DNA of 39,219 nt, from the NCBI GenBank assembly GCA_039798685.1, contig JBDKFM010000002.1, forward strand, positions 1-39,219. The letters run 5' to 3'. The translations under genes and the position numbers were made by a program. Positions within the stretch are counted from its first letter, which is position 1. Every line of letters begins with the position of its first letter. Of this stretch, positions 2,696 to 21,910 are shown piece after piece. This DNA comes from Candidatus Parcubacteria bacterium (GTDB lineage Bacteria > Patescibacteriota > Microgenomatia > Levybacterales > UBA12049). The notes below the pieces were generated by a model. That model was not told the origin of the DNA. It saw nothing but the letters and a program-made list of their open reading frames with translations, and searched no databases.

Positions 2696-4486
2696 TTACC
2701 AGCTTCCGCCACCACCTCCGCCAAACCCACCTCCTGAGGATCCTCCGCTGCTGGAAAAACCGCTGCTTTTCGGAGCGGATGCGATCGAACTTGAGACAGA
2801 TGTCGCAAATGAGTTCATGCTGGATTGAAATGACATGTAATTAAACGCATGCGCACCGTAATACCATCCGCTCCCCATCTGTTTCTCAGGCAGTCCAATA
2901 TCCTTCATTGCCTGTGCAAATTTTGCAGTCAGTCCAAACACAATCGCATACGGCAACACTTCATTAAACAGATTTTTCTTCTCAAAAAATTTCTGTCTGT
3001 GTGTTTCCGCAGTTGAGATAAAAAGTCGATACCCTCTGATGCGTCGATACATCTCCCTCCCCTTTGCCGTTCTCCGCGACATAAACGGTGTCAGTATCAG
3101 GAAAAATACTCCCAGAGCCACGACACTGATTGCAACACTGACGGGATATGGCGACTCCCCGTTCACGACGTAAGAGAAAAATACAAATCCCAAAATTAGA
3201 AGTACAATTCCCAAAACAAGGTAAATTCCCCGCACTGATTCAGGGTTTTTCGGAAACAACTTTTCGGAAACCACCCGCTCGTAGAGTGATTTTTTCACAT
3301 CGGCAAGATCTGTGTAAAATTTCTGCTTCAGTGATGAGACTTTGACTTCGTCCTTCCCGTCAAACAACCTCTCAAAAAGCATTTTTTCATATGGCACGAG
3401 TTCCTTCGTCTCTGTTTTTTTTCTCTTCAAGAGATAATCAGTACTCCCGAACATCCAAGATTTTTCAACTTCAGTGATGCTGAGATATCCTCTTCCTGCC
3501 AGATCAATGATTGTTGCGACGACATCAAGTGTATCAGCCCGTTCATCACTGAGCACTCCAATTTCAGCTGGACGCAGCTTTTCAGGAGGCGTATACTCCA
3601 CAACCACCGTTTCATGCTCTCCGACTCCACGTATCCGCTCATTGTCTGAACTCACAAAAAGCCCTTTCCCCATATATGTCATATCCCGCCCGTTTTTCAG
3701 CCAGATAACAAATGCGATTCCCACTGCTCCAAGTAACAGAACGCCCAGAAATAGTAACGATGCCGGCTCAATCATTTTCTCAAATAATGTCTTTGGCTTT
3801 TGCACGACAAGAAGTGGAATTACACCTTTTTCGTACCCTGTCACAAGCGTCAGCCCTTCATTTGGCTGAAGCGGACGACTTGCAGCATATGAGACAGACT
3901 GCGCACCCTCAGCTATCGTATAGGTACACGGATCTTTATATGTCGAGTATCCCTGAAAACAGGTCGCTTGAAGCACAGGAGCACTTTCGACTTTGACACC
4001 GGCTGACGCACGTTCTATCGGAACCCCCCATCCGTTACCGGTCACATTCCAGTAAAGCTCGTCATAACCGTCAAAACCTTGCAGTATCCCTTTTACAGAA
4101 TACGTCAGCACATACCTATGTGTTCCCGAGAGTGTCTTATCTGCATCTCCAATTCGTATGTTGATATTATTCTCATTTTTCGTTACGTTCGTGGTCGCAC
4201 TCAGTCCGTCCTGCATCACACTGTCTATATGCAATTCAGTGTAATAAGGCTTCCCGTCCCGGTCATATACGTAGGGTAAATCCCTATAAATTCCATGCTT
4301 CTGAAGTGTCCCGAAATCGACTTCAATCGTCTCTTGTATCTTCACATCTCCGGTTTTTTCAACAGCAATTTCTGAATGAAATGAATCAATTACCCACCCG
4401 GTCTCCTGGGCATAAACACGTGGGGCAATAAGCGATAAGCAATAAGCGAAAAGCAGAAATAAAAATATGCCCAGAACCCGCTTCAT
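2696..4486 (-). CDS. DUF2207-family membrane protein
   Basis: Signal/TM segment MKRVLGIFLFLLFAYCLSLIAP, extracytoplasmic N-domain and several central/C-terminal TM helices. The Gly-rich tail SSGGSSGGGFGGGGGGSW is typical of DUF2207. Confidence 0.8.
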   Translation of the reverse strand: MKRVLGIFLFLLFAYCLSLIAPRVYAQETGWVIDSFHSEIAVEKTGDVKIQETIEVDFGTLQKHGIYRDLPYVYDRDGKPYYTELHIDSVMQDGLSATTNVTKNENNINIRIGDADKTLSGTHRYVLTYSVKGILQGFDGYDELYWNVTGNGWGVPIERASAGVKVESAPVLQATCFQGYSTYKDPCTYTIAEGAQSVSYAASRPLQPNEGLTLVTGYEKGVIPLLVVQKPKTLFEKMIEPASLLFLGVLLLGAVGIAFVIWLKNGRDMTYMGKGLFVSSDNERIRGVGEHETVVVEYTPPEKLRPAEIGVLSDERADTLDVVATIIDLAGRGYLSITEVEKSWMFGSTDYLLKRKKTETKELVPYEKMLFERLFDGKDEVKVSSLKQKFYTDLADVKKSLYERVVSEKLFPKNPESVRGIYLVLGIVLLILGFVFFSYVVNGESPYPVSVAISVVALGVFFLILTPFMSRRTAKGREMYRRIRGYRLFISTAETHRQKFFEKKNLFNEVLPYAIVFGLTAKFAQAMKDIGLPEKQMGSGWYYGAHAFNYMSFQSSMNSFATSVSSSIASAPKSSGFSSSGGSSGGGFGGGGGGSW

Positions 4487-6421: not shown

Positions 6422-6988
6422 TTACGTAGAAAGCTCTTCATCGTCATCTTCTTCTATACTCCCAAATGTCTCTTTATTCTCATCGACATGCGGCAAAAGT
6501 GTCTCAAGAATCCTCACATATCGCACAGGATTATGCACGGCATACAACTCAGCACACTCATTAAGACGCCAATCAAAAAGAGTCAATGTGCCGTAATTTA
6601 GCATCTTTCCAAGCACGCTCTGACTGATTCCGACCTGTTTGATATTTTGTATTCCGTGATGCTCGACTTTCTTAAAAAACACCCCCCTCTTATGCGCGAT
6701 TCCGTGAGGCGAAATTTCATAATACTCATTTACCCACTCCATAACGACATACACAGTCAACGCTGATTCGACGAGACTGAGAAGAATAAGTGACGAGAGA
6801 CCAAAAAGTGGATCATCAACAGGCAGCCACGCCTGAAGTCCTGTTGAGTAAAGTGAGTAGTATAAAATGATGAGCAGTACAGTCGTCAAGACATCAGCAA
6901 AAATAAGTTTCACAACCAAAAATGAGATACTCATCCTCACATTGACGTGATCAACTGCGATTTTTTTCGTTTTTTCGTTTGGCTGCAT
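6422..6988 (-). CDS. Membrane protein with bacterial PH domain (bPH_2 / YdbT-YdbS-like, DUF304)
   Basis: Two TM helices, then YYEISPHGIAHKRGVFFKKVEHHGIQNIKQVGISQSVLGKMLNYGTLTLFD, typical of membrane-flanked bPH domains. The track start at 7024 is TTG. The ATG at 6988 is preceded by TACCAT and a 7-nt spacer. Confidence 0.7.
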   Translation of the reverse strand: MQPNEKTKKIAVDHVNVRMSISFLVVKLIFADVLTTVLLIILYYSLYSTGLQAWLPVDDPLFGLSSLILLSLVESALTVYVVMEWVNEYYEISPHGIAHKRGVFFKKVEHHGIQNIKQVGISQSVLGKMLNYGTLTLFDWRLNECAELYAVHNPVRYVRILETLLPHVDENKETFGSIEEDDDEELST

Positions 6989-7053
6989 CCTCACTATGGT
7001 ATCGCTCCTCTTTGGGAAATACAAGCAGTGGTATCACTTCGCTATGGAGATGT

Positions 7054-7449
7054 TTATGCAGTCCCCACACTCGGATCCTGCTCCATGAGGCTGAAAATAT
7101 TTTCTTCTGTATCTTTACAGTACACAACCCACCCTACACCGGAGACGGGTTTTTTTGAGACAATGACTTTCCCACCATTCTCAATCACCCGTCCGACTGC
7201 GTCCTCAATATCCTCAACATCGACAGTATTCACAAATCCATTTACTGGTTGACCCTCTTTTGGTTTTCCTGCCTTCCTTCTCATAATCGCGCCGTCAATT
7301 CCGGGAGTGTCTGATGTACCGGTTGTGATAAGCCAGTATTCCTGTGGACCATTCCAACGCAGTATTTCCCAGCCAAACACAGACGTATAAAACGCCGATG
7401 CTCGCTCAGGATCTTCTGCATGGATCTCAAAATGCACAACTCGTGCCAT
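7054..7449 (-). CDS. VOC (glyoxalase/bleomycin-resistance/dioxygenase) family protein
   Basis: MARVVHFEIHAEDPERASAFYTSVFGWEI... is a typical VOC N-terminus. The track's N-terminal extension (to 7665) overlaps the cupredoxin gene and was trimmed to the ATG at 7449, 7 nt after the cupredoxin stop. Confidence 0.8.
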   Translation of the reverse strand: MARVVHFEIHAEDPERASAFYTSVFGWEILRWNGPQEYWLITTGTSDTPGIDGAIMRRKAGKPKEGQPVNGFVNTVDVEDIEDAVGRVIENGGKVIVSKKPVSGVGWVVYCKDTEENIFSLMEQDPSVGTA

Positions 7450-7456
7450 AGGGGTA

Positions 7457-7984
7457 TTACTGAACAATAAGCTTGCCGACCATTCCCATCTGGCGATGGT
7501 TGCCGACTGAGCAGTAGAATTCGTATGTTCCGGCTTTATCTGCAACAAATGTAATCGTATCGCTCTGTCCTGCTGAGAGCACTTTTGTCCGTGCTTCCTC
7601 GAACTCATCGACAACCCAATCGTGCATGCCTGTTTTATTATTGAGAGTGATCGTGACTTTATCACCTTTCTTCACTGTAATAGTCGTAGGATTGAACTTA
7701 AAGCTTGTTGATTCGATAGTAAACGATTTTTCAGTAGCAGACATCGCGGATTCACTTCCTGATGAGGGAGTTGTTTCCTCAGTGACCTCAACCATTGCGC
7801 CTTCAGGAGTCGGCGACACAACAGCCGTCTCTTCAGTCGTTGCTGGTACCGATGTTTTTGATTGATTCATAAAAAACACTGCACCGAGTATGCCAAGCAC
7901 AATCACGACAAATACGCCGATAAGAATCATGTTTTTGTTGCTTCCTGCTGGCTGTGGAGCTGATGAGGATGTATTCTCGTCCAT
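7457..7984 (-). CDS. Membrane-anchored cupredoxin (type 1 blue-copper, plastocyanin/azurin-like) protein
   Basis: N-terminal TM helix and a Thr/Ser/Glu-rich linker. Cupredoxin domain with candidate Cu ligands H (GMHDW), C (FYCS), H (GNH) and M (QMGM). Confidence 0.8.
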   Translation of the reverse strand: MDENTSSSAPQPAGSNKNMILIGVFVVIVLGILGAVFFMNQSKTSVPATTEETAVVSPTPEGAMVEVTEETTPSSGSESAMSATEKSFTIESTSFKFNPTTITVKKGDKVTITLNNKTGMHDWVVDEFEEARTKVLSAGQSDTITFVADKAGTYEFYCSVGNHRQMGMVGKLIVQ

Positions 7985-7993
7985 GAGATGTTT

Positions 7994-8023
7994 ACTATAC
8001 TATAGTAAATTTATTCTTGTCAA
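7994..8023 (-). promoter_or_regulatory. Sigma-70-type promoter TTGACA-18-TATAGT, 9 nt upstream of the cupredoxin ATG, overlapped by a perfect 9+1+9 palindrome
   Basis: Minus strand reads gggTTGACAagaataaatttactatagTATAGTaaacatctcATG. The palindrome TTTACTATAcTATAGTAAA lies at 7991-8009. Confidence 0.5.
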
Positions 8024-8071
8024 CCCTAAACGGATAACCGACATCTTCACATTCTCTAGAGAAAGGAATTT

Positions 8072-8206
8072 TTAATCTCTCTCGAGTCCGACCGGACCAC
8101 GGAGTTCAGTCGTCTCCTTAATCTGCTCCCTGTTTAGCAGCATATAAAGACTAATACAAAGTACCAGTATGACGAGTATGATCGCTGCAATATTTTCATT
8201 CTTCAT
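8072..8206 (-). CDS. Small (44 aa) single-TM hypothetical protein
   Basis: MKNENIAAIILVILVLCISLYMLLNRE... The ATG at 8206 is preceded by TATACT and a 6-nt spacer, the same geometry as other genes here. The longer track ORF (to 8257) overlaps the upstream gene. Confidence 0.4.
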   Translation of the reverse strand: MKNENIAAIILVILVLCISLYMLLNREQIKETTELRGPVGLERD

Positions 8207-8222
8207 ATTCCAAGTATACAAC

Positions 8223-9530
8223 CTATGAGGGATGCACATACCTGTAGGTAATAGCAATTGTCGTCAAAAGCATCACACTAAGATACAACACGCTGATTCT
8301 TCCGAACCATTGATCTTTTTTAAAAAGAATAAGTAACAGTAACGGCACACATAACAACCCGAGTAAAATCCGGTAAAAAAACGGGGAAAGACCGAAATAT
8401 GAATCATAAAAATACTCAAGCTGCGGGATACCGACCAAAATACAGACAAGAAAAAATGCCATACTTTTTTTCCTGAGAGTCTCCAAAAGAAACAGCGAGG
8501 TTGCAGCCGCCATGAACGGAAACAGCGGGATCAGATACCAGCCGCTTTGCCCTGTCTTTGAGAGTGATGCAAGAAGTGTGAAAAAATACACCCCTGCCGG
8601 AATAAGTAGAAGCAGATGTTTTTTATATTCCCGGCTCAGAAATCCTAACGAGACAAATCCGAGAAAATACCATCCGTCATAGTACACTTTATTGACAATA
8701 ACAGGCTGCAACACAAGCATCCACAGGGCTTGCGGACCGATATCGCGACCTGATTGCAAACCCTGAATCTCCCAGAATAAATTCCAGTTATACAGTGCAG
8801 CATAGACGAAAAGCAGGGATGCACAGAGCAAAAATGAAGCCGTCAACAGAGCACTCTGCCTGAGAGACAGATTATTGCGGAAAAACAGACACAAAAGTAT
8901 CACAAAGAGTACGCCGCCAAGTATTTTTGTCAAAAAAGCAGCTCCGGCAATTACTCCCAACACAAAAACGCGTTGCCAACTCAGATGATGTTTCCACCGC
9001 GAAAAAAGTAACAACGCCGTCACAAAGAGAAGTGCGAGCTGATTCTCTGCAACCGAGACCCGCTGATTCATCACAAAAATAGTCACCGTTGAGTAAAGAA
9101 CTAACGTCAGAAGCGCAGCAGCAAAACTATACTCACGCTTGATGAGGAAGAACAAAATAATTCCGGTCAGTGTCGTCATCAATATCGGGAAAAGACGTAT
9201 CGTCTCAAGTTTTTGCTCAGTAAACCCCTCCTGTTCAAATCCTAAAAGAAACATGCCAAGTGTCAGCGCATATCCGGGTGGATGATCGAAATAAGGCGAC
9301 ACAATAGGAAAGTAGATATGGTCAATGATTACATCCTCCCGGTTGTGATACGCCTGAAATGCAGACCATGAAACAGGCATCCCTTTTGTCAAAAGACTCG
9401 TCCCGAGAAACGAGTATGTGTACTCATCTGAAGTGGCTCCTCGTTGGGGAAAATAACTGTAGTGATACACCCTAAGCCAGATACTGAGAAGGATGACAAG
9501 AACAAATAATATTTTTTGCAGTAGCGACAT
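8223..9530 (-). CDS. Polytopic GT-C-fold glycosyltransferase (GT39/ArnT/PMT-like)
   Basis: More than 10 predicted TM helices. The first-loop acidic motif (RGATSDEYTYSFLG) resembles the DE motif of ArnT/PMT-type lipid-linked sugar transferases. Confidence 0.65.
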   Translation of the reverse strand: MSLLQKILFVLVILLSIWLRVYHYSYFPQRGATSDEYTYSFLGTSLLTKGMPVSWSAFQAYHNREDVIIDHIYFPIVSPYFDHPPGYALTLGMFLLGFEQEGFTEQKLETIRLFPILMTTLTGIILFFLIKREYSFAAALLTLVLYSTVTIFVMNQRVSVAENQLALLFVTALLLFSRWKHHLSWQRVFVLGVIAGAAFLTKILGGVLFVILLCLFFRNNLSLRQSALLTASFLLCASLLFVYAALYNWNLFWEIQGLQSGRDIGPQALWMLVLQPVIVNKVYYDGWYFLGFVSLGFLSREYKKHLLLLIPAGVYFFTLLASLSKTGQSGWYLIPLFPFMAAATSLFLLETLRKKSMAFFLVCILVGIPQLEYFYDSYFGLSPFFYRILLGLLCVPLLLLILFKKDQWFGRISVLYLSVMLLTTIAITYRYVHPS

Positions 9531-10751: not shown

Positions 10752-11267
10752 ATGGATACTAAGAGAGAAGTGTTTAAACGTCGCCCAAAAGAAGTCACCG
10801 TAGCCGTGGATATCATCATTGATAAAGATGCGGCACTTGCACGGATTGAGCCCTTGGTCGTAATATATGATTACGAGGTGCTTAACGCAATTCGATCCGA
10901 AGATCAATCTGTGGCGCCTGAAGTTAAAAGATTTCATACACAAGCCAGAGAAACAGCGCAAGTTAGACTCGACCTCTACTCAAGTCTCCGGAGTGGCGTA
11001 CAAAGCGGGAGAGTATCACTTTTTCCAGATCCTAATTTACACGCAAATGATCCCTATTTTATTCCTCGATCTAAACTCTTGGCAGACGATAGAGAATTTG
11101 TTCTAGGGATGTCAGAATTAATGGATATCATCGATATATTAATAGCACCAAGAGCTATAACTACAACCTCAGAAGCCGAAAAAAATAGAACAAGATTAAA
11201 CGTTATAAATCGGTTACAAAAGGAAGAGAATGTGAATTTTATGGTCACCCCACCTCCTCAGGGATAA
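10752..11267 (+). CDS. Hypothetical protein (171 aa)
   Basis: ORF directly downstream of the consensus promoter. Its stop abuts the uppS stop with 0 nt between them. No recognisable motif. Confidence 0.6.
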   Translation: MDTKREVFKRRPKEVTVAVDIIIDKDAALARIEPLVVIYDYEVLNAIRSEDQSVAPEVKRFHTQARETAQVRLDLYSSLRSGVQSGRVSLFPDPNLHANDPYFIPRSKLLADDREFVLGMSELMDIIDILIAPRAITTTSEAEKNRTRLNVINRLQKEENVNFMVTPPPQG

Positions 11268-11948
11268 CTACTTCCCGAACCTTCTCTCCCGCGCGGCAAA
11301 ATCATCAAGAGCAATTTGCAGCTCCTTTTCATCAAAATCAGGCCAGAGAGTATCAGTAAAATAAAGCTCCGTATAGACAGACTGCCAAGGCAAAAATCCA
11401 CTAAGCCTTTTCTCTCCCCCTGTCCGGATCATAAAATCAGGATCGGGAATATTCGACGTGTAGAGATAATTGCTAAATTGCTTATCGTTTATCGCGAATT
11501 GCTTATCATCTACTGCTTTTTTTATTGCCTGGAGAATCTCATCCCTACCCCCGTAATTGAGAGCAATTGTGACCGTAATTTTTTTATTGTCTTTTGTTTC
11601 TTCAAGTAGCTTCTTTAAGTCACTTTGTATATCCTGAGGAAATTTGCTGATATCTCCGATGACTCCAAACTTTACGTCATTTTTCTTCATCCTCTCAACC
11701 ATGGGATCACGAAACATTCTCCTGAATACTTCCATCAGCACCGCAACCTCCTGCTCCGACCGCTGCCAGTTCTCAGTTGAGAATGCCCAGAACGTCACGA
11801 ATTTCACGCCTTTCTTTGATGCGTATTCAACAAGAGGCTCTATCTGATGCGCTCCTTTATCATGGCCAAAAAGCATCTCAAGTTTGTGTGATACTGCCCA
11901 ACGCCTATTACCATCCATGATAAACGCGATATGAGTTGGAATATTCAT
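11268..11948 (-). CDS. uppS: Undecaprenyl-diphosphate synthase (cis-prenyltransferase)
   Basis: HIAFIMDGNRRWA, FSTENWQRS and IRTGGEKRLSGFLPWQ are hallmark UppS motifs. Confidence 0.93.
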   Translation of the reverse strand: MNIPTHIAFIMDGNRRWAVSHKLEMLFGHDKGAHQIEPLVEYASKKGVKFVTFWAFSTENWQRSEQEVAVLMEVFRRMFRDPMVERMKKNDVKFGVIGDISKFPQDIQSDLKKLLEETKDNKKITVTIALNYGGRDEILQAIKKAVDDKQFAINDKQFSNYLYTSNIPDPDFMIRTGGEKRLSGFLPWQSVYTELYFTDTLWPDFDEKELQIALDDFAARERRFGK

Positions 11949-12008: not shown

Positions 12009-12040
12009 ATTTCAAATTTCGAATTTCAAATTGAAAATTA
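12009..12040. repeat. A/T-rich inverted-repeat family, copies in the idi-uppS spacer
   Basis: atttcaaattt (12009-12019) plus the 19-mer aatttcaaattgaaaatta (12022-12040). The same 19-mer recurs at 20743-20761. Each copy overlaps the TAA stop codon of the upstream gene. Confidence 0.8.
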
Positions 12041-12562
12041 CTCAAGAAACTTTACCGTTTCTATCGCCCATGGTGTATATTTCTCAGGATTCTTTTTCAC
12101 ATCAGTGATAAATTCCTGTTTCGGCATCCATTTATATTCATAAATCACATCGGGATTCGCAGCTACTTCCCCGTTATATTTCCCTACTAACACTGCGCAG
12201 TACTCATTTTCACAATGTGCATGATATTTTGCAAAGTAATTAAATCCTCCGATTTTTTCAATCGATACATCACGAATTCCCATCTCATCTTTGAGCGATC
12301 TATTCGCTGCTTCTTCATACGTTTCATCATGTCCCTCAGAAAAGTGCAACACATGACTAATCGCTGTAAGATCCCAATACTTATCCCACCTGACATGTTT
12401 TCGTAATTGCAAAAGCACCTCGCCCTTAGAATTTTCAAGAAGCACCACGAATGCACGGTGATGAATCCCATCCCCAAAATGACACTCACCTTTATCTTCA
12501 TATGCACCCGTCGGCACATCATTCTCATCGACAATAATCAGCTGTTGTCTGGCTTGGCTCAT
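12038..12562 (-). CDS. idi: IPP isomerase type 1-like Nudix protein (catalytic Cys position not conserved)
   Basis: Aligns along its length with E. coli Idi as I recall it: His pair CHFGDGIHH, HRAF, ENE (CENEYCAVLVG), W...SH. The NSVCGHP segment reads LTAISHV here. Sits between the MVD homolog and uppS. Confidence 0.65.
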   Translation of the reverse strand: MSQARQQLIIVDENDVPTGAYEDKGECHFGDGIHHRAFVVLLENSKGEVLLQLRKHVRWDKYWDLTAISHVLHFSEGHDETYEEAANRSLKDEMGIRDVSIEKIGGFNYFAKYHAHCENEYCAVLVGKYNGEVAANPDVIYEYKWMPKQEFITDVKKNPEKYTPWAIETVKFLE

Positions 12563-12590: not shown

Positions 12591-13034
12591 TTAGACGGAC
12601 TTTTCCTGAAGAAGTGGCGCGACAAGACATAAGCGCTCACGTTTTTGTGCAAGAGTAACATGAAACATCTCTTCTGAATTTCTTGGAGTTTCTCCAATCC
12701 ATCTATCATGATGCGCCTGATATGGAGCGACATCATGGGTCGTCGCATCATGTCCATGTATACGAGTTTGAAGCTCCCCACTCTCATCTCTCCGCTCATA
12801 GATTTCACCATAAGACAACTCCACGATGATTGGACGCTTATCAGGACTTAACACAGCATCAACTGGTGCAGCAGTCGCAAGTAATTCAGCTCTCGTTGGA
12901 AATAGTTCAGAATACACCAGAGTCATGAGCCCTTGCTCTCTTCTCACGCCATACGCTGCATGACGCATTTCTTTACCAGAATAAGCAACCTCAACGACGC
13001 TTCCGGAAATTGGATGTATTTCTCCTCTATTCAT
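12591..13034 (-). CDS. Hypothetical His-rich protein (147 aa) embedded in the MVA cluster
   Basis: ORF between the MVD and IDI homologs. TATAAT (13052-13057) lies 17 nt upstream. Contains the segment RIHGHDATTHDVAPYQAHHDRW. No family recognised. Confidence 0.6.
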   Translation of the reverse strand: MNRGEIHPISGSVVEVAYSGKEMRHAAYGVRREQGLMTLVYSELFPTRAELLATAAPVDAVLSPDKRPIIVELSYGEIYERRDESGELQTRIHGHDATTHDVAPYQAHHDRWIGETPRNSEEMFHVTLAQKRERLCLVAPLLQEKSV

Positions 13035-13100: not shown

Positions 13101-14081
13101 TTAGAACAGATGAGTATCGAGAAGATGCGCACCCTTTGATGCGTTTGAGGCGATGATTTGCTTCACGACAGATATTTCCCGCAATTTCTCAGAGAGAATC
13201 TTCTCTGTAGATTTCTCACAGAGTATATGGATATTCTGACCTGTGTTCATCGTGAAATAACACGCAAGCCCTTCACTTCTCCATCGCTGCACGGCTTTCA
13301 TAATAGTAATCGTTGCGGGGTACCAATAGATAAGTGAGGGGTGTGATGTCAGCATAATTGCATGCATTTCAAGAGCCTCTGATTCTGTGATCTCTCCAAA
13401 TATTTTAAAATCTTTTTCTTCAAGTGATTTCTTTATCCTTACAATTTTTTCTTTTATCAAATCTTGTCGAACTCGGAAGAAAGGACTCGATGCAGCCAAC
13501 TTCTGCCCCTCGGTTGTACTCACATCTTTTACCTGATCAGTAAGTATGACAGCGATGTCGATGATATCCCAATAATCCGGAGGATAAATACTCGTCGCAT
13601 ACGACATCTCTGACGTATCGCCATCACGCCACTCGACAAATCCATCGGGAATCGACCGACATGCCGATCCTGAACCCTGTCGCGCAAGGATGCTGAGTTC
13701 TTTTTCTGACAAATCTAATCCAGCGGCTTTTGTTGCGGCGAGTGTGAGTGCTGCAAATCCTGATGCAGATGAAGACAATCCGGTACCCCGCGGGAAACTA
13801 TTTTCTGAAACAACTTTTGCCCTCTCACTGATCCCTGCGAGCGCACGAACCCGATCAAGATGCGAGGAAACTTTTTCCTTTGTCCCATTCTTTTCTACAG
13901 TACCATTGATGACGACATCATCATCTCTCAGTGAGGAGTCAAATTCCACTGTCGTCGTTGTTGTAAGCTCCGACAAATTCATCGAGATACTTCCATTGCT
14001 TGGAAGCTTCAAAGCTTCATCTTTCCTCCCCCAATATTTTATGAATGCGATATTTGATGGAGCAATAACCGTACACTTCAT
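13101..14081 (-). CDS. mvaD: Diphosphomevalonate decarboxylase family protein (MVD/PMD homolog, atypical active-site motif)
   Basis: APSNIAFIKYWGRKDE, GLSSSASGFAAL and ARQGSGSACRSIPDGFVEW are hallmark motifs. The C-terminal motif reads CYFTMNTGQNIHIL instead of ...FTMDAGPN... Confidence 0.85.
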   Translation of the reverse strand: MKCTVIAPSNIAFIKYWGRKDEALKLPSNGSISMNLSELTTTTTVEFDSSLRDDDVVINGTVEKNGTKEKVSSHLDRVRALAGISERAKVVSENSFPRGTGLSSSASGFAALTLAATKAAGLDLSEKELSILARQGSGSACRSIPDGFVEWRDGDTSEMSYATSIYPPDYWDIIDIAVILTDQVKDVSTTEGQKLAASSPFFRVRQDLIKEKIVRIKKSLEEKDFKIFGEITESEALEMHAIMLTSHPSLIYWYPATITIMKAVQRWRSEGLACYFTMNTGQNIHILCEKSTEKILSEKLREISVVKQIIASNASKGAHLLDTHLF

Positions 14082-14179
14082 ACTTTAATTTCAAATTGCT
14101 AATGTGCAATTTTCAATATCCAATAATCTTTTCGTTTCCATTTGAAATTTGTTATTTGATATTTGAAATTTGAAATTCA
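14082..14179. repeat. A/T-rich inverted-repeat family, about 5 copies filling the kinase-MVD spacer
   Basis: aatttcaaattg (14087-14098), caattttcaat (14107-14117), atttgaaattt (14140-14150), atttgaaatttgaaatt (14161-14177). Opposite-orientation copies sit immediately after the upstream stop and just before the downstream ATG. Confidence 0.8.
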
Positions 14180-15163
14180 TTCAACCCTCACTCCTTCTGC
14201 ATTTGTTGTGACCTTAAGAACTTCTCCCCCCGCTTTCTCAATCGCGTTTTCAATAGCACGTGTACCCTGAGCATCATGAAGAGCTATCATACAATCCCCG
14301 CCTCCTGCACCTGAAAGTTTCGCTCCATATGCTCCGGCTCTTCTCACTGCGTCTATCATACCATCAAGCTTCTCTGTACTGACACCCAGTCCCACAAGTA
14401 ATTTCTGATTTTCATCCATCAACATGCCTGCTTCTTCGAAATCGTCTTTTTCAAGCGCTACTTTGGCTTTCTCAACAATTACTTCGATGTCTCTATACAC
14501 TGTCTCCACGAACTCCGGATTTTTCTGAGCGAGCTCCGCAACTTTATGTATCAAGGTTACCGTGTCTGCTTTGATCCCTGTATAACCAATGAGTAATGGT
14601 ACATGTTTTATGGATAATGGTTTTATTTCCTTTCCTCCTGTGACAAAATAAAGCGTACCGCCATATATCGCAGAAGCGACATCAAACCCAGACCCTTTCC
14701 CCTGAATATCTAAGACAGTTTTATATGAAAGATCAAAAATTTCTTTCTGTGATAAGTTCAGATCAAATAATTCTGAAAATGCTTTAGTAACACACACGGT
14801 TGTGGCGCTTGATGACCCAAATCCAAACGTCGATGCGAATTCCGATTTTGTGGAGATGTGGAGTCCGGCGATACGACTACGCGGCACACGCCCAGAATCG
14901 ATAAAATTTTTTACTGCGTACTCGACAAACCTCGCTCCTTTTGGAATCTCTCCCTTTCCCAACTCTTCTAATGATTTTTCGTAATTTTCTACCCCAACAT
15001 CCGGTGCATCTACACGTAGCGCTTTGCCCTTAGCGTTTTGCGAAACCATCAAATGCAGTCGTTGATCAACTGCGGTGACCAGACAGGGATGACCATACAC
15101 AACAGCGTGCTCACCAAAAAGCATCAGTTTTCCAGGAGCAGATACGGTAAGTGAACGCAGCAT
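14177..15163 (-). CDS. Mevalonate-kinase-like GHMP kinase, paralog 2 (candidate phosphomevalonate kinase or second MVK)
   Basis: APGKLMLFGEHAVVYG (MVK-type motif 1), GSGFDVASAIYGG (catalytic Asp), divergent P-loop FGFGSSSATT, canonical motif 3 KLSGAGGGDC. Only 3 nt lie between the upstream stop and its ATG. Confidence 0.8.
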   Translation of the reverse strand: MLRSLTVSAPGKLMLFGEHAVVYGHPCLVTAVDQRLHLMVSQNAKGKALRVDAPDVGVENYEKSLEELGKGEIPKGARFVEYAVKNFIDSGRVPRSRIAGLHISTKSEFASTFGFGSSSATTVCVTKAFSELFDLNLSQKEIFDLSYKTVLDIQGKGSGFDVASAIYGGTLYFVTGGKEIKPLSIKHVPLLIGYTGIKADTVTLIHKVAELAQKNPEFVETVYRDIEVIVEKAKVALEKDDFEEAGMLMDENQKLLVGLGVSTEKLDGMIDAVRRAGAYGAKLSGAGGGDCMIALHDAQGTRAIENAIEKAGGEVLKVTTNAEGVRVE

Positions 15164-15166
15164 ACG

Positions 15167-16240
15167 TTAGTGCACAGTGAGGCCGGATGCACCCAAACGG
15201 ATTCCGACCGGTGTGAGATTAAACTGTGCCAAAACATCTTCAAGTGTTTTCTTATCACTATGATACACGAGGAGATGACCAGTACCTCTGATTTTTCCTC
15301 CTCCCCCCGAGATCTTCGCAGCGCCACCTGACGCCTCAATACTCCTGATGATATTTTTGACGTTACCCGATACTACTTCCAATTGCTCAAGATTTTTTTC
15401 ACCCTGCTTAATAATCTCAATCAAATCCGCCTCATGATTATTCTTAAGGACAATCACCATATCCCGTGTCACTTTTTCCAGATCATTAAATACATTCGCC
15501 ACAAACTCAATTTTCTCATTATAAAGATCTCGTACTGCCTGCACCATCTCTCCTGTCGACTCCTCAGGAATTCCCGTGTCTACCAAATAAAACCGTGACG
15601 CGATCGGATCCAAAATCCCAAACGGCACACGCTGCACAACTTTCAGTACCTCAGATTCCTTTCGAAACCAGATCAAATTTCCGCTCGAGACTATCGCCGC
15701 ATCACCACCGGACGGATTTCCATGTTTTTTCTGCTCGATAAGTACCGCAATTTCATGCACTGTTGCCATCTCAAGTTTCTTCCCGAGAAACGTGATGATC
15801 GCTGTTGCAACTGCAGCCGCAAGTGCAGCGGACGAACCAAGCCCGGCACCCATCGGAATATCTGAGGTGATGGTGAGTGTAAAACCGCTCTGTGGTGGAA
15901 CTCCAAGATACAAGAGCGTCTCCCCGATTGCAATCGCGAGATAATCAACCGGATCTTTCGTGATCGCCTTCAGTATCTGTGAATCTTTCTTGTCCAGAAA
16001 ATCCTCCCACTGCTTCTGACCTCTATATGTTTTTTCCATGACCTCATCGAGTGTCAGAATAACATCTGTCTTAGTATCTTTTGAGATAATCTGAATTTTC
16101 GCATCACTTCTTGGCAGAAGATGAACCGTACATCTCCTATCGATTGCAGCCAAAAGAGCCGGTTTTCCATACACGACGGCATGTTCACCCATGAGATGAA
16201 TTTTTCCGGGAGCGGAGACAGTAATTGCCTGCATGAGCAT
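15167..16240 (-). CDS. mvk: Mevalonate kinase (GHMP kinase), paralog 1
   Basis: APGKIHLMGEHAVVYGKPALLAAID, HGNPSGGDAA, PMGAGLGSSAALAAAVA, KISGGGG. These are the most canonical MVK motifs of the two paralogs. An alternative start is the ATG at 16234. Confidence 0.82.
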   Translation of the reverse strand: MLMQAITVSAPGKIHLMGEHAVVYGKPALLAAIDRRCTVHLLPRSDAKIQIISKDTKTDVILTLDEVMEKTYRGQKQWEDFLDKKDSQILKAITKDPVDYLAIAIGETLLYLGVPPQSGFTLTITSDIPMGAGLGSSAALAAAVATAIITFLGKKLEMATVHEIAVLIEQKKHGNPSGGDAAIVSSGNLIWFRKESEVLKVVQRVPFGILDPIASRFYLVDTGIPEESTGEMVQAVRDLYNEKIEFVANVFNDLEKVTRDMVIVLKNNHEADLIEIIKQGEKNLEQLEVVSGNVKNIIRSIEASGGAAKISGGGGKIRGTGHLLVYHSDKKTLEDVLAQFNLTPVGIRLGASGLTVH

Positions 16241-17334: not shown

Positions 17335-18075
17335 CTACATCTGATGACGCGATAAGGAGCTTGTTATCTGTACGACGTATCGATCCTGCATGACATGTGC
17401 AATTCTCCCGTCCACGAAAGAAATATTTGCAGGACTTCCTTCCGAATACTCACTGAGCAATGGAAGCACATTTGCCTCAAGTAATGAATTGGTTACTAAA
17501 TATCTCTCATCGGTTGTAAATGTTGTAATTAACATCGGTCGACTTGCCATAGACATCAAATTTCCCCACTCAGCCAGGACATGATTCATGATCGGATCAG
17601 GTCCGATACTTGGATGCCGAGCAATCACCACATCAGGCATCGTGCCAAGTACACGCAAAATAGCGTCAGGACTTTTCTTACCCAGATCCTCTTCAAGCCA
17701 TACGGCATCTGCCTTCATAGCTGAAAGTACACCCATCTCCCCAACACTCTTATCAACTCCCATAATAAGTGACTCCGGAAAAAGAGCTCGCGCATGCAAA
17801 AGCTCACTTCCCTCACCAAAACCCAAAAACAGAAGAGACGGTGCATGAGGCAGTGCATCACGATCAAGATACTTCGCAAAAAAATCAGGGAGATGAGACG
17901 AGATATCCAATAAAGTATCTGTCGCAGCGTCAATGATGTCCCTAATAAGGCTACCATCGGGTAAAGAATTAAACACAATAGATGATTCTTCAGGCCTTTC
18001 TTTTATCGCTGTAACAAGCATTTGTACAGCAGCATAAATCTGCTCCTCATCCGGACTCAGTGTTTCTGCGCTCAT
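17335..18075 (-). CDS. Hypothetical protein, possibly a class I SAM-methyltransferase-like Rossmann fold
   Basis: SLLFLGFGEGSELL...LIMGVDKS resembles MTase motif I plus the acidic post-I residue, and DVVIARHP resembles motif IV. Weak. TATAAT (18084-18089) lies 8 nt upstream of the ATG. Confidence 0.55.
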   Translation of the reverse strand: MSAETLSPDEEQIYAAVQMLVTAIKERPEESSIVFNSLPDGSLIRDIIDAATDTLLDISSHLPDFFAKYLDRDALPHAPSLLFLGFGEGSELLHARALFPESLIMGVDKSVGEMGVLSAMKADAVWLEEDLGKKSPDAILRVLGTMPDVVIARHPSIGPDPIMNHVLAEWGNLMSMASRPMLITTFTTDERYLVTNSLLEANVLPLLSEYSEGSPANISFVDGRIAHVMQDRYVVQITSSLSRHQM

Positions 18076-18423: not shown

Positions 18424-18500
18424 ATGTATCGAAATTTCAAATAGATACCAATTTCAAATTTCCAATGATTCCTTCTTTCGCTATCAGTCATTTGAAATTA
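18424..18500. repeat. A/T-rich inverted-repeat family, copies in the thiolase-DUF35 spacer
   Basis: aatttcaaat (18433-18442), aatttcaaattt (18450-18461), atttgaaatt (18490-18499, overlapping the thiolase TAA stop). A 51-nt unit (18449-18499) aligns with the 43-nt unit at 14107-14149. Confidence 0.8.
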
Positions 18501-19658
18501 GAAATTATTTTTTTTAAATATATGAACTGTCGCAATCGCTCCTGATCCTCCGACGTTATGCGCCAGACCTATCTTTGCATCTGTGACAGACTGCTTCTCA
18601 CCAGCAGTCCCCATGAGCTGCTCAAATATCTCAACTGCCTGTTTGACACCGGTTGCACCGACCGGATGACCGCATGCCTTAAGTCCTCCTGAAGGATTGA
18701 CGATCGTTTTTCCTTTTCCTCTGGTAAATTTCCCTTTCTTCAGATCCGATGCTCCTTTTCCGGTTTCTGAGAACCCCAGATCCTCAACTGCGATTAACTC
18801 AGCGATACTGAAACAATCATGCACCTCAGCGACATCGACATCGACTGGCCTCAACCCTGCCCGGGCGTATGCACGTCTCCCCGCATCTTTTGCTGCATTG
18901 AGAGACGTAAATGATGCACGCTTATGAAGTGCCAATGTATCAGTCCCTACTTCACTTGCGACAATCGAAACACTATTTTTTGAGATAATCTTCGGGTCAC
19001 TACTGATAATCACGCATGCGCCGCCGTCAGTAACGGGTGAACAATCAAGTAATTTTAGAGGGTCGGCAATCCTGCTGCTTTTCATTACATCAGCAACAGT
19101 TACCTTAAACTTAAACTGCGCCTTCTGATTGTATGATCCGTGAAAATGATTTTTTACCGCAACTTCCGCCAGGTCCTCCTCTTTGTACTTATATTCGGAC
19201 ATATATGCCTGCGCCATGAGTGCATATAATCCGGGAAATGTAATCCCCGATCCCCGCTCCTCATCGGACCCTGCCGCCATGAGCGCAGATGCAACAAGAT
19301 CACCTCCGGCATCAGTCATTTTCTCAATCCCCAACACAGCAACTGTCGTATAGAGTCCTGCTTTAATGCTATTTATTGCATTATGCAATGCCACTCCTCC
19401 TGATGCACACGCTGCCTCAAGCCTAAACGCAGGAACCGGTGAAAGCCCCAACTCTTCGGCATAAAACGAACCAATATTTTCCTGATGTCCGAGAAGTCCA
19501 CCAAGCATATTTCCCACATAGAGCGCCTCTACTTTTGATGACGAAATCCCGGATTGTGCCAAAGCAGAATTGAATGCTTCTTTCGCAAGTTCCCGAGGAG
19601 AGCTCGTCCAAAGCTCACCGAATTTTGTTGTCGCCGCTCCTATAATTGAAATATTCAT
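18498..19658 (-). CDS. Acetyl-CoA acetyltransferase (archaeal-type thiolase)
   Basis: Active-site EAACASGG. NPSGGLKACGHPVGATG. HNVGGSG near the C-terminus. Sits between HMGCS and DUF35, as in archaeal operons. Confidence 0.88.
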   Translation of the reverse strand: MNISIIGAATTKFGELWTSSPRELAKEAFNSALAQSGISSSKVEALYVGNMLGGLLGHQENIGSFYAEELGLSPVPAFRLEAACASGGVALHNAINSIKAGLYTTVAVLGIEKMTDAGGDLVASALMAAGSDEERGSGITFPGLYALMAQAYMSEYKYKEEDLAEVAVKNHFHGSYNQKAQFKFKVTVADVMKSSRIADPLKLLDCSPVTDGGACVIISSDPKIISKNSVSIVASEVGTDTLALHKRASFTSLNAAKDAGRRAYARAGLRPVDVDVAEVHDCFSIAELIAVEDLGFSETGKGASDLKKGKFTRGKGKTIVNPSGGLKACGHPVGATGVKQAVEIFEQLMGTAGEKQSVTDAKIGLAHNVGGSGAIATVHIFKKNNF

Positions 19659-19684: not shown

Positions 19685-20722
19685 CTACAACTTGTGTGTT
19701 TTCTGCAAATATTGTAGATAACTTATATATTCTTTATCAGCAATCTGTGTACTGACAGGAATCGTTTTTTTCTGAAAATCAGTAATTTTTTTTGTTGTCT
19801 CGAAGATAAATCCGTCAGCTCCCGCTCCTGATCCGTACGAGACAAAAAATATCTTCTGTCCTGGCTTTGCAGTATCCAACACTTCAGCAAGCCCGAGCAT
19901 TGCAGACGCTGTATATGGGTTTCCGACCATATCGACAGTCAACGAGGGAAGAAGTTGTTCTTTAGTGAATCCAAGCTTTGCTGCAACAGCGCGGGGAAAC
20001 TTACCGTTTGGCATATGAAAGACGCAATAGTCAAAATCAGATGGCTGCATCTGTGATTTCATAAGTAGTGCATGCGCCTCCCCTAACACATGCGCAAAAT
20101 ATGCCGGTTGACCGGTAAACCTTCCGAAATGCGAAGGATACCGCACGCCATCTCTCCTCCAAAAATCCGGTGTGTTTGACGAGAATGATGACATCTCTTT
20201 TATTTCAGCAATCAATTCATCTTTATTGCTCCCCAGGATATACGCTGCCGCGACACTCGCAGCGCTGTACTCAAGTACATCATGTGGTTTTGCTTGTGCG
20301 GTATCAGATCCAATGACGAGTCCGTATCCGATCTCTCCGCTCCCGAGTAACCCGGCAGTGACCTGCATTGCAGCAGTTGCTGCCTTACAGGCGAATTTCA
20401 TATCAACTGAAAAATAGTGATTTCCCATCCCGATCGCCTCTGCAATAATTGTCGCTGACGGATTGACCGCATAGGGATGACTCTCTGATCCGACGAACAC
20501 ACTTTGCAGCTTTTTCGCATCCAGTCCGCATGCACGAAGTGCCGAGACCGTCGCCTCAACACCCATTGTGATCGCATCCTCATCAGTGTTGGGGACGGCT
20601 TTTTCCTTCACCTGAATCGCATCCACGATATCCGCAGGATTTTTCTGCCATGCCCGAGCGATATCCTCAATTTTAATTCTGTAATGCGGAATATATGTAC
20701 CGTATGAAACAATGCCTACCAT
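19685..20722 (-). CDS. mvaS: Hydroxymethylglutaryl-CoA synthase (archaeal-type, about 345 aa)
   Basis: MVGIVSYGTYIPHYRI N-terminus, VGSESHPY (Glu), KFACKAAT (Cys), CVFHMPNGKF (His). Confidence 0.88.
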   Translation of the reverse strand: MVGIVSYGTYIPHYRIKIEDIARAWQKNPADIVDAIQVKEKAVPNTDEDAITMGVEATVSALRACGLDAKKLQSVFVGSESHPYAVNPSATIIAEAIGMGNHYFSVDMKFACKAATAAMQVTAGLLGSGEIGYGLVIGSDTAQAKPHDVLEYSAASVAAAYILGSNKDELIAEIKEMSSFSSNTPDFWRRDGVRYPSHFGRFTGQPAYFAHVLGEAHALLMKSQMQPSDFDYCVFHMPNGKFPRAVAAKLGFTKEQLLPSLTVDMVGNPYTASAMLGLAEVLDTAKPGQKIFFVSYGSGAGADGFIFETTKKITDFQKKTIPVSTQIADKEYISYLQYLQKTHKL

Positions 20723-20735
20723 AATAAAAATTTTT

Positions 20736-20761
20736 AATTTACAATTTCAAATTGAAAATTA
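20736..20761. repeat. A/T-rich inverted-repeat family, copy in the HMGR-HMGCS spacer
   Basis: aatttacaatttcaaattgaaaatta. The last 19 nt are identical to 12022-12040 and 24 of 26 nt match 12015-12040. It overlaps the HMGR TAA stop. Confidence 0.8.
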
Positions 20762-21910
20762 TTTCCCTCTCCCCAATCGTCTATGACTCTCTGCAAGGCT
20801 TCCCTCTGAGAGACTAGCCAGAAGCGAGATCTCCCCTGCCAGACAAGCTGCGACGACAATCTGTGCAAACTCCTCAATTTTCCCTTCACCGCTGACGCCG
20901 AGAATTTGCAGTGCTTCTTTTTGTGTCGGAAGATTTGTTCCTCCTCCAACTGTACCAACGAGTAGCGCCGGCAGATACACGCCAACATATAAATCACCAT
21001 TTTCAAGCACTTTCGCTGTCGTAATCCCAAGCGACCCTTCAACGACGTGCGCCGGATCCTGTCCTGTCGCGAGAAATATCGCTGCGATCACATTTGCGAG
21101 ATGCGCATTAAAGCCCATTGACCCTGCGGCTGCTGATCCCAGCATTACTTTTCCGAGCCACACATCAAAAAACTTCTCGGGCGTCGTCTTCAGTATCTCT
21201 TTTAGAACTCTTCTTTGAAGAACGACCTCAGCCCACGCTTTCGTCCCTCTCGCAGATATCGCATTGATCCATGCCGGCTTCTTGTCAGTATCAAAATTTC
21301 CCGCAACAGAAAGACACGGAATCCCTGTTTCTTTTTCGATATATGAAACCGCCGCCTGTGTCGCGATCGTCGCCATATTCATCCCCATCGCATCCCCTGT
21401 GTCATAGGAAAAACGAAGAAAGGTATAATTCGGTAAACTCTTTGTTGTGACGTCCAATAACTGCAGATGTCCTGATGTCGCTTCGGTAATTGCTTTGATC
21501 TTTTTCTTCTCTTCTTTTATAAACGTATGCAGTCTTGTGCCTTCTTGTATTGAAGCTGTGTAAAAAACTGGTCCGCGACTCATACCGACTTTATGCGTAT
21601 GGACAACTGCTCCACCAGATTCCGAGATCGCCTTACAACCACGACTAATTGATGCTACAAGCGCTCCCTCAGTCGTCGCTAATGGCAAATAATAATCTTT
21701 ATTTGTAATTTGAGAGTTGAAATTTGAAATTTTCAGTGGTCCCGCAATCCCAAGTGGGATTTGTACGGCACCAATCATGTTTTCGCAGTTTTTGGTTGAG
21801 GCAATCTCAAGTTCCGGAGAATATGTCGCAATATGTGGTAGCTCAGCAGAAATCTCCTGCTCTAGGGCTTTGCGTCTCGTTTTTGTGTCAGGTAAATCTC
21901 GTATCTTCAT
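20759..21910 (-). CDS. mvaA: HMG-CoA reductase, class I (soluble archaeal/eukaryotic-type catalytic domain)
   Basis: ENMIGAVQIPLGIAGPL, LPLATTEGALVAS, GDAMGMNM, GTVGGGT, C-terminal ESHRRLGR (His). An SD-like AGGAGAGG lies 9 nt upstream of the ATG. Confidence 0.9.
   Translation of the reverse strand: MKIRDLPDTKTRRKALEQEISAELPHIATYSPELEIASTKNCENMIGAVQIPLGIAGPLKISNFNSQITNKDYYLPLATTEGALVASISRGCKAISESGGAVVHTHKVGMSRGPVFYTASIQEGTRLHTFIKEEKKKIKAITEATSGHLQLLDVTTKSLPNYTFLRFSYDTGDAMGMNMATIATQAAVSYIEKETGIPCLSVAGNFDTDKKPAWINAISARGTKAWAEVVLQRRVLKEILKTTPEKFFDVWLGKVMLGSAAAGSMGFNAHLANVIAAIFLATGQDPAHVVEGSLGITTAKVLENGDLYVGVYLPALLVGTVGGGTNLPTQKEALQILGVSGEGKIEEFAQIVVAACLAGEISLLASLSEGSLAESHRRLGRGK
21691..21736. 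repeat. Repeat-family-related segment inside the HMGR coding sequence
   Basis: In mRNA sense, AAATTTCAAATTTCAACTCTCAAATTACAAAT matches GAATTTCAAATTTCAAATATCAAATAACAAAT of the 14147-14179 spacer at 28 of 32 positions (manual alignment). AAAGATTATT follows in both. The segment encodes KISNFNSQITNKDYY. Confidence 0.6.

Follow-up and report, generated by a model that had tools for sequence, protein, structure and literature searches.

The DNA analysed here, called the window below, is the whole 39,219-nucleotide stretch of contig JBDKFM010000002.1 in the Candidatus Parcubacteria assembly GCA_039798685.1. Its minus strand carries a complete mevalonate operon, in which a gene resembling type 1 isopentenyl diphosphate isomerase (IDI-1) lies between the genes for diphosphomevalonate decarboxylase (MDD) and undecaprenyl-diphosphate synthase (UPPS). 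In textbooks IDI-1 exemplifies antarafacial acid/base catalysis, carried out by a Cys/Glu pair whose cysteine belongs to the family signature motif. The protein encoded here, P0001, has isoleucine in place of that cysteine and keeps the metal site and the glutamate, and it is probably a working isomerase of isopentenyl diphosphate (IPP) and dimethylallyl diphosphate (DMAPP). The features on which this reading turns are as follows.

12038 to 12562, minus strand: IDI-1-like gene encoding P0001 (174 aa), a Cys-less protein of "type B" as defined below, from the open reading frame (ORF) and its translation.
12359 to 12361, minus strand: codon ATT for Ile68, at the position of the catalytic Cys67 of Escherichia coli Idi, from the sequence read and alignments.
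12371 to 12373, minus strand: codon GAT for Asp64, at the position of E. coli Thr63, a candidate replacement acid/base, from the sequence read.

Positions 12379 to 12344 of the minus strand (tat tgg gat ctt aca gcg att agt cat gtg ttg cac) translate as Y W D L T A I S H V L H, which identifies ATT at 12359-12361 as the Ile68 codon. Three alignments with E. coli Idi, made by phmmer against its Protein Data Bank (PDB) chains, by MAFFT with the sequence from NC_000913 (27% identity to P0001) and through a family hidden Markov model of 281 aligned domains, all set Ile68 opposite Cys67. The metal site is kept and invariant in the family, with His28, His35, His70, Glu118 and Glu120 equivalent to His25, His32, His69, Glu114 and Glu116; Tyr109, which forms the proton-donor pair with Glu120, and the carbocation-stabilising Trp165 (Tyr104 and Trp161 in E. 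coli) are invariant together with Glu120, and the three alignments also equate Lys24 with Lys21, Arg54 with Arg51 and the Mg-binding Glu93 with Glu87. Apart from Cys67, the catalytic and metal-binding residues are invariant across sequences just 35-50% identical. The Nudix box runs S69-x10-E80-x7-R88-S89-L90-K91-D92-E93-M94-G95-I96 and lacks the catalytic glutamate set of the consensus GX5EX7REUXEEXGU; within the family, position 89 (the "RE" glutamate) is serine, alanine or cysteine and position 92 (the first "EE" glutamate) is variable.

P0001 matches only NUDIX in Pfam (PF00293; 48.3 bits, above the cut-off of 21.1) and has a weak match to the YfcD-type model NF011922 (33.6 bits), and its closest solved relatives by sequence, in a phmmer search of PDB chains, are E. 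coli Idi (E about 3e-11) and human IDI1/IDI2. An AlphaFold2 model built from 95 sequences (pLDDT 97.1, pTM 0.91) was compared with the PDB by Foldseek, and all top 10 matches are IDI-1 (TM 0.78-0.81), headed by the human and E. coli enzymes (TM 0.80, root-mean-square deviation 2.2-2.9 Å); YfcD reaches TM 0.73 and ordinary Nudix hydrolases 0.61 or below, with AtNUDX1 among the weaker matches. The predicted structure thus places P0001 confidently in the IDI-1 fold. The gene is under strong purifying selection, with a dN/dS of ~0.05 against its nearest ortholog at near saturation of synonymous sites.

An earlier note on this DNA had aligned the motifs CHFGDGIHH, HRAF, CENEYCAVLVG and WDLTAISH with AHTADTRLH, HLAF, VENEVCPVFAA and WTNSVCGH of E. 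coli Idi and had concluded that isoleucine, encoded by ATT at 12359-12361, replaces the catalytic cysteine. The alignments reproduce every one of these pairs, the sequence read agrees on the codon, and the comparison with the IDI-1 profile and structures that the note had recommended returned no cysteine at the catalytic position alongside a retained metal site and glutamate. With three agreeing alignments and a confident model whose top fold matches are IDI-1, that observation is confirmed in full.

The survey of orthologs at the cysteine position, also suggested there, covered 120 close homologs drawn from 90%-identity clusters (52-88% identical to P0001). None has cysteine in the Cys67 column, which holds Ile in 101, Val in 5, Thr in 4, Ser in 2, Ala in 2 and a gap in 6, so the loss of cysteine is due neither to chance nor to sequencing error. 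Related loci in GTDB species genomes are Cys-less in 38 of 38 cases, and they carry the bacterial labels Levyibacteriota, Shapirobacteria, Curtissbacteria, Blackburnbacteria and "Microgenomates" and the archaeal labels Bathyarchaeia, Micrarchaeota and Aenigmatarchaeota; many third-party annotation records are labelled "uncultured Gammaproteobacteria", which was taken as a generic label. The Cys-less clade spans Microgenomates-type bacteria of the candidate phyla radiation (CPR) as well as some DPANN and Bathyarchaeia archaea. A type B homolog in a Chloroflexi metagenome-assembled genome (L122, SHYK01000004.1, about 3144-3505) is broken across three frames and is probably a pseudogene or the result of assembly frameshifts.

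Two Cys-less types were distinguished, type B, to which P0001 belongs, having His at E. coli position 55, and type C having the motif WDGSVVSH with Lys55 and Arg83 kept. CPR genomes hold three forms of IDI-1, canonical, type B and type C. FastTree and IQ-TREE, with 150 of roughly 1,900 relatives sampled, place P0001 in a supported Cys-less clade (SH-aLRT 91 to 95), type C in a separate supported clade (98) and the E. coli-type and eukaryote-type Cys-bearing proteins in supported clades of their own, and on these trees the Cys-less forms are several deep lineages. The base and root of the tree are poorly supported, the YfcD outgroup being a long branch, and the polarity of Cys and Asp is not fixed by it. 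A third IDI-1 class has cysteine at position 66 only (WDNTCASHP, WESSCSTH) together with Asp or Glu at 63 (P0147, P0184, P0166, L050 and others); on the tree its members are interspersed among eukaryote-type CC clades, and the class may stand between the Cys and Asp designs. Tandem proteins of ~350 aa with two IDI-like domains were also seen (P0139, P0140, P0150, P0158, P0181, P0185), in which one domain is canonical with Cys67 and the other has a hydrolase-like Glu at 83 and mostly lacks Tyr104 and/or Trp161.

Position 63, where the classical TNxCCSHP motif begins, is Ser, Thr or Ala in Cys67-bearing proteins; Asp occupies it in all type B proteins (100%) and in 88% of those of type C, and an acid, Asp or Glu, in 93% of the class with Cys66 only. 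Isomerase-like members, taken as non-redundant proteins lacking the hydrolase-type Glu at position 83 (n=235), comprise 85 with Cys67 and no acid at 63/64, 147 with the acid and no Cys67, 1 with both and 2 with neither, so that 232 have either Cys67 or the acid and not both. Relatives with a hydrolase-like Nudix box have neither in 11 of 17 cases, and from 9 of these Tyr104 and Trp161 are missing as well. The exchange of Cys67 for an acid, together with the conservation of position 63, makes Asp64 of P0001 the prime candidate for a second acid/base, or for an organiser of water, Mg or the substrate diphosphate. Comparison of sequences suggests it, tentatively, as the substitute for Cys67.

That isomerisation could proceed through another residue had been raised in the earlier note, and the acid at 63/64, which tracks the loss of Cys67, favours it; the residue offered there as an example, the extra cysteine of the CENE motif, is confined to the clade of P0001. 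This Cys117 is 92% conserved in type B, is replaced by Ala, Ser or Gly in type C, which has the same genomic role, and is not conserved in the Cys66-only class, and as a relocated thiol it was ranked below Asp64. Strand alternation should also turn it away from Glu118 and Glu120. A cysteine at the Arg83 position was likewise rejected as a substitute, being present in a sister subclade but replaced by Ser or Ala in the subclade of P0001.

The rest of the genome was searched for other sources of DMAPP. Type 2 isomerase (IDI-2, Fni; TIGR02151) is absent from the window, as the earlier note had remarked, and from the remainder of the assembly, where the best match, on another contig, scores 24.8 bits against a cut-off of 281.3. 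IspH, a second IDI-1-like gene (canonical ones included) and isopentenyl phosphate kinase (IPK) were not found in the assembly either; its single AA_kinase is PyrH, which scores as an archaeal-type UMP kinase, and none of its five other Nudix genes is IDI-like. The near-complete relatives G123 (1 contig) and G138 (3 contigs) similarly yielded no other isomerase. The suggestion that the isomerase is encoded elsewhere therefore found no candidate in this 90%-complete assembly or in these two relatives. The genome does encode a trans-polyprenyl synthetase, which needs an allylic primer, and BacA/UppP.

Distribution across the class was examined in 201 sampled genomes, in 70 of which the best IDI-like gene was fetched and classified; the counts are those of the sample, and its members are relatives that are not independent. 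MDD is present in 62 of the 201 and IDI-2 in 13, a number that includes G068, flagged unpublished, on which nothing else here depends. The MDD-positive genomes include ~11 with type B, ~10 with type C, ~20 with canonical IDI-1 and 5 with IDI-2, and about 15 that had no IDI call, gave an odd or Nudix-only best match or were not fetched. No MDD-positive genome that was classified carries two of these four, and sampled genomes with IDI-2 never carry a Cys-less protein. Such a pattern would be expected from isofunctional displacement.

The order MDD, IDI-like gene, UPPS is kept in relatives and the genes are tightly packed; one relative has the three joined so closely that stop codons abut or overlap the next start codons. 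UPPS follows the IDI-like gene directly, overlaps it or is fused to it. The Cys-less domain is fused to UPPS in P0121 (396 aa) and L090-L092 and to polyprenyl synthetase in P0129 (528 aa), P0132 (535 aa), L012, L014, L018, L025, L107, L108, L111, L117 and L119, and a canonical Cys-bearing IDI-1 (P0159) shows the same fusion to polyprenyl synthetase. A search for HMG-CoA reductase, MDD and IspH found none of them in four CPR genomes, G013 (L079), G075 (L080), G016 (L081) and G123 (L082; single contig, 99% completeness). These carry modules either of IPPS, IPK, Cys-less IDI-like gene and UPPS or of the IDI-like gene with a UPPS::IPPS fusion and IPK after it; the IPK of these modules matches NF040647 with 197 bits. 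In Curtissbacteria-type genomes the Cys-less gene follows IspH. These fusions, and the modules with and without mevalonate genes, indicate that the gene travels with DMAPP-consuming enzymes, whatever the upstream route. The IPK modules of the four genomes without these upstream genes among the search results suggest that a C5 unit, isopentenyl phosphate or something related, is salvaged from a host. Directly after the Cys-less gene of the single-contig, 820-kb CPR genome at L082 lies a 602-aa fusion of UPPS and trans-polyprenyl synthetase (6525-8333, plus strand), and a ZIP zinc transporter gene lies directly upstream.

CPR IDI-I has been described as universal in CPR that bear the mevalonate pathway and as syntenic with mevalonate, IPK and prenyltransferase genes, IDI-II being sparse, by Hoshino & Gaucher 2018 (PMC6107057). 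On balance, P0001 is probably a working IPP/DMAPP isomerase from an old, thiol-free branch of IDI-1, with Asp64 as the prime candidate for its second base. IPP derived from MDD would be protonated at C4 from the side of Glu120, Tyr109 and the metal, as in E. coli Idi, and the C2 proton would be removed by a non-thiolate group, for which the invariant Asp64 is the prime candidate, either directly or via water, Mg or the diphosphate of the substrate itself. The resulting DMAPP would prime the trans-prenyltransferase, and UPPS, encoded next door, would then build the undecaprenyl carrier lipid. A broader proposal, to which we give rather less than even credence, is that IDI-1 exists in two designs, one based on Cys67/Glu116 and a thiol-free one based on Asp63/Glu116 that is found in most Microgenomates-type CPR and several DPANN/Bathyarchaeia, the Asp design being at least as old and possibly ancestral. 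Its possible ancestral status comes from the YfcD-rooted tree, whose deepest branches are Cys-less clades, though this placement lacks support.

P0001 might instead act on a prenyl or isopentenyl (di)phosphate without isomerising it, by hydrolysing IPP, DMAPP, farnesyl diphosphate or undecaprenyl diphosphate, by hydrating IPP once it is protonated with no base on the far side, or by acting on isopentenyl or dimethylallyl monophosphate. Such a reaction, which we regard as unlikely, would suit a protein that has lost the essential cysteine, has Lys55 and Arg83 replaced and scores under the IDI-1 equivalog cut-offs, but its Nudix box is as degenerate as that of true IDI-1, and it keeps the invariant equivalents of Tyr104 and Trp161, both of which are missing from most of the hydrolase-box relatives without Cys67 or acid (the 9 of 11 above). 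UPPS, which makes a product that has to lose phosphate, is always the neighbour or fusion partner of the gene; prenyl-diphosphate-hydrolysing Nudix enzymes do exist, and AtNUDX1 is one of the weaker fold matches; however, BacA/UppP is already present in the genome, the trans-prenyltransferase would be left without a source of DMAPP, and the fusions in relatives join the domain to a prenyltransferase that consumes DMAPP. Mutual exclusion with canonical IDI-1 and IDI-2 in genomes bearing the mevalonate pathway also points to the same role as theirs. IPK is often adjacent in relatives, as Hoshino & Gaucher 2018 (PMC6107057) also report, which would fit a monophosphate substrate; in the present genome such a substrate is unlikely because no IPK was found. 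The possibility of a Nudix-type hydrolase, put forward when the gene was first described, has thereby become less likely, given that the Nudix-box glutamates are not restored, that the isomerase-specific Tyr and Trp are kept and that prenyltransferase fusions occur.

Less probable again is a catalytically dead pseudo-enzyme that binds substrate or serves as a scaffold beside prenyltransferases, with DMAPP supplied by an unrecognised enzyme, by a host or by a gene in the 10% missing from the assembly. Loss of the catalytic cysteine would be expected of it, CPR bacteria depend on hosts, some of the relatives having no de novo pathway at all, and the assembly is only 90% complete, with other sampled genomes of the family lacking the pathway. 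Yet a role in binding alone would not need every other catalytic and metal residue to be invariant at 35-50% identity, and the gene is under strong purifying selection; moreover G123 and G138 are near-complete and have no other isomerase that could be found, and the Cys-less protein never occurs in genomes with IDI-2.

Several points weigh against P0001 being an isomerase, or against the part given to Asp64. To our knowledge, mutant data show Cys67 to be essential in every characterised IDI-1. Two diphosphate-binding cations are changed, Lys55 to His56 and Arg83 to Ser89, the latter adjoined by the invariant Arg88. The best NCBIfam matches of P0001 are IDI-1 models, both below their cut-offs (NF002995, 85.4 bits against 127; TIGR02150, 73.4 against 105.8); as both the canonical cysteine and the curated score are lacking, P0001 is better described as an IDI-1 variant than as a plain member. 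The best tree implies ~10 changes each for Cys67 and the acid, of which just 2 independent contrasts fall on well-supported branches, so that the association is not statistically established and may rest on a few ancient events. Neither MDD nor a close homolog of the IDI-like gene is present in any of the other 7 sampled genomes in the GTDB family of the window's genome or of the 4 sampled from the same order, and this patchiness of the operon in the lineage could reflect loss in relatives, horizontal transfer or mis-binning of the 39-kb contig. The assembly (1.18 Mb, 78 contigs, 90% complete) is incomplete. Cys67 (Cys139 in yeast) is also held to be essential in every characterised IDI-1 (Wouters et al. 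2003 JBC 278:11903, cited in PMC9354746), and no assay of any member of the Cys-less clades was found in a literature search whose coverage excluded subscription journals. Within the same coverage, no published description of a Cys-less IDI-1 was found.

The other genes of the operon, and the ORF that separates MDD from the IDI-like gene, are as follows.

11268 to 11948, minus strand: UPPS (cis-prenyltransferase), the next gene downstream of the IDI-like gene (PF01255, 271 bits; TIGR00055, 262.6 bits, above cut-off).
12591-13034, minus strand: His-rich 147-aa ORF between MDD and the IDI-like gene, with no Pfam/NCBIfam match.
13101 to 14081, minus strand: diphosphomevalonate decarboxylase, MDD (TIGR01240, 276.8 bits, cut-off 171; PF22700, PF18376).
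14177 to 15163, minus strand: mevalonate kinase (TIGR00549, 217.4 bits, cut-off 163).
15167 to 16240, minus strand: second GHMP kinase, phosphomevalonate kinase candidate (GHMP_kinases_N, 64 bits; TIGR00549, 177.5 bits).
18498 to 19658, minus strand: archaeal-type acetoacetyl-CoA thiolase (NF004720, 471.5 bits).
19685 to 20722, minus strand: archaeal-type HMG-CoA synthase (NF003274, 478.9 bits; TIGR00748, 417.3 bits).
20759 to 21910, minus strand: class I HMG-CoA reductase (PF00368, 397.6 bits).

The candidate role of 15167 to 16240 as phosphomevalonate kinase follows from its position in the operon and from Hoshino & Gaucher 2018 (PMC6107057). The 147-aa ORF was considered as a partner that might compensate for the missing cysteine and was rejected, as it has no family match and no counterpart by tblastn or blastn in 40 related loci, and MDD and the IDI-like gene abut in L008; it probably represents an orphan, or a spurious reading frame, within a spacer specific to this lineage. 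Between an OB-fold gene and the kinases of the operon, a 246-aa ORF (17335-18075, minus strand) has no Pfam/NCBIfam match, and a 199-aa ORF, also without a match, occupies the corresponding place in L006. A 171-aa ORF lies on the opposite strand beside UPPS (10752-11267, plus strand).

If P0001 is an isomerase, the IDI-1 mechanism can be reached in another way and the "essential" cysteine is one option, not a necessity. A natural Cys-free isomerase would be insensitive to oxidation and alkylation and would offer a thiol-free enzyme for pathway engineering. Annotation would change for Cys-less proteins that fall under the curated IDI-1 cut-offs and are often named just "NUDIX domain protein", and the assumption that such genes are ordinary IDI-I, on which reconstructions of CPR/DPANN isoprenoid metabolism and of the ancestral mevalonate pathway draw, would be put to the test. 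A protein that does not isomerise would be equally notable, leaving many CPR genomes without a known route to DMAPP.

Compared with characterised type 1 isomerases (E. coli Idi, PDB 1NFS/1HX3; human IDI1, PDB 2I6K/2ICK), P0001 shares the Nudix-derived fold, the His3/Glu2 metal site and the equivalents of Glu116, Tyr104, Trp161, Glu87, Lys21 and Arg51, as well as a place at the end of a mevalonate operon, and fusions to polyprenyl synthetase occur in both. It differs in having Ile for Cys67, Asp-Leu for Thr63-Asn64 of TNxCCSHP, His for Lys55 and Ser/Ala/Cys for Arg83, and in a 5-residue insertion after His70 and an extra cysteine before the ENE motif. The CPR "IDI-I" of Hoshino & Gaucher 2018 (Mol Biol Evol 35:2185, PMC6107057) is apparently the same gene family, and the present survey agrees with theirs; the available text of that paper treats the CPR homologs as ordinary IDI-I and makes no mention of the missing cysteine or of the aspartate. 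IDI-like Nudix hydrolases of the YfcD type (E. coli YfcD, PDB 2FKB) have a related fold and likewise no cysteine at the IDI position, but YfcD has a full Nudix box (RREAEEELGI) and no equivalents of His25, His69 and Glu116, whereas P0001 combines a degenerate box with the IDI metal site. Type 2 isomerase (Fni) is a functional analogue that, within the sampled class, fills the same slot in genomes bearing the mevalonate pathway, and is an unrelated, FMN-dependent TIM-barrel flavoenzyme.

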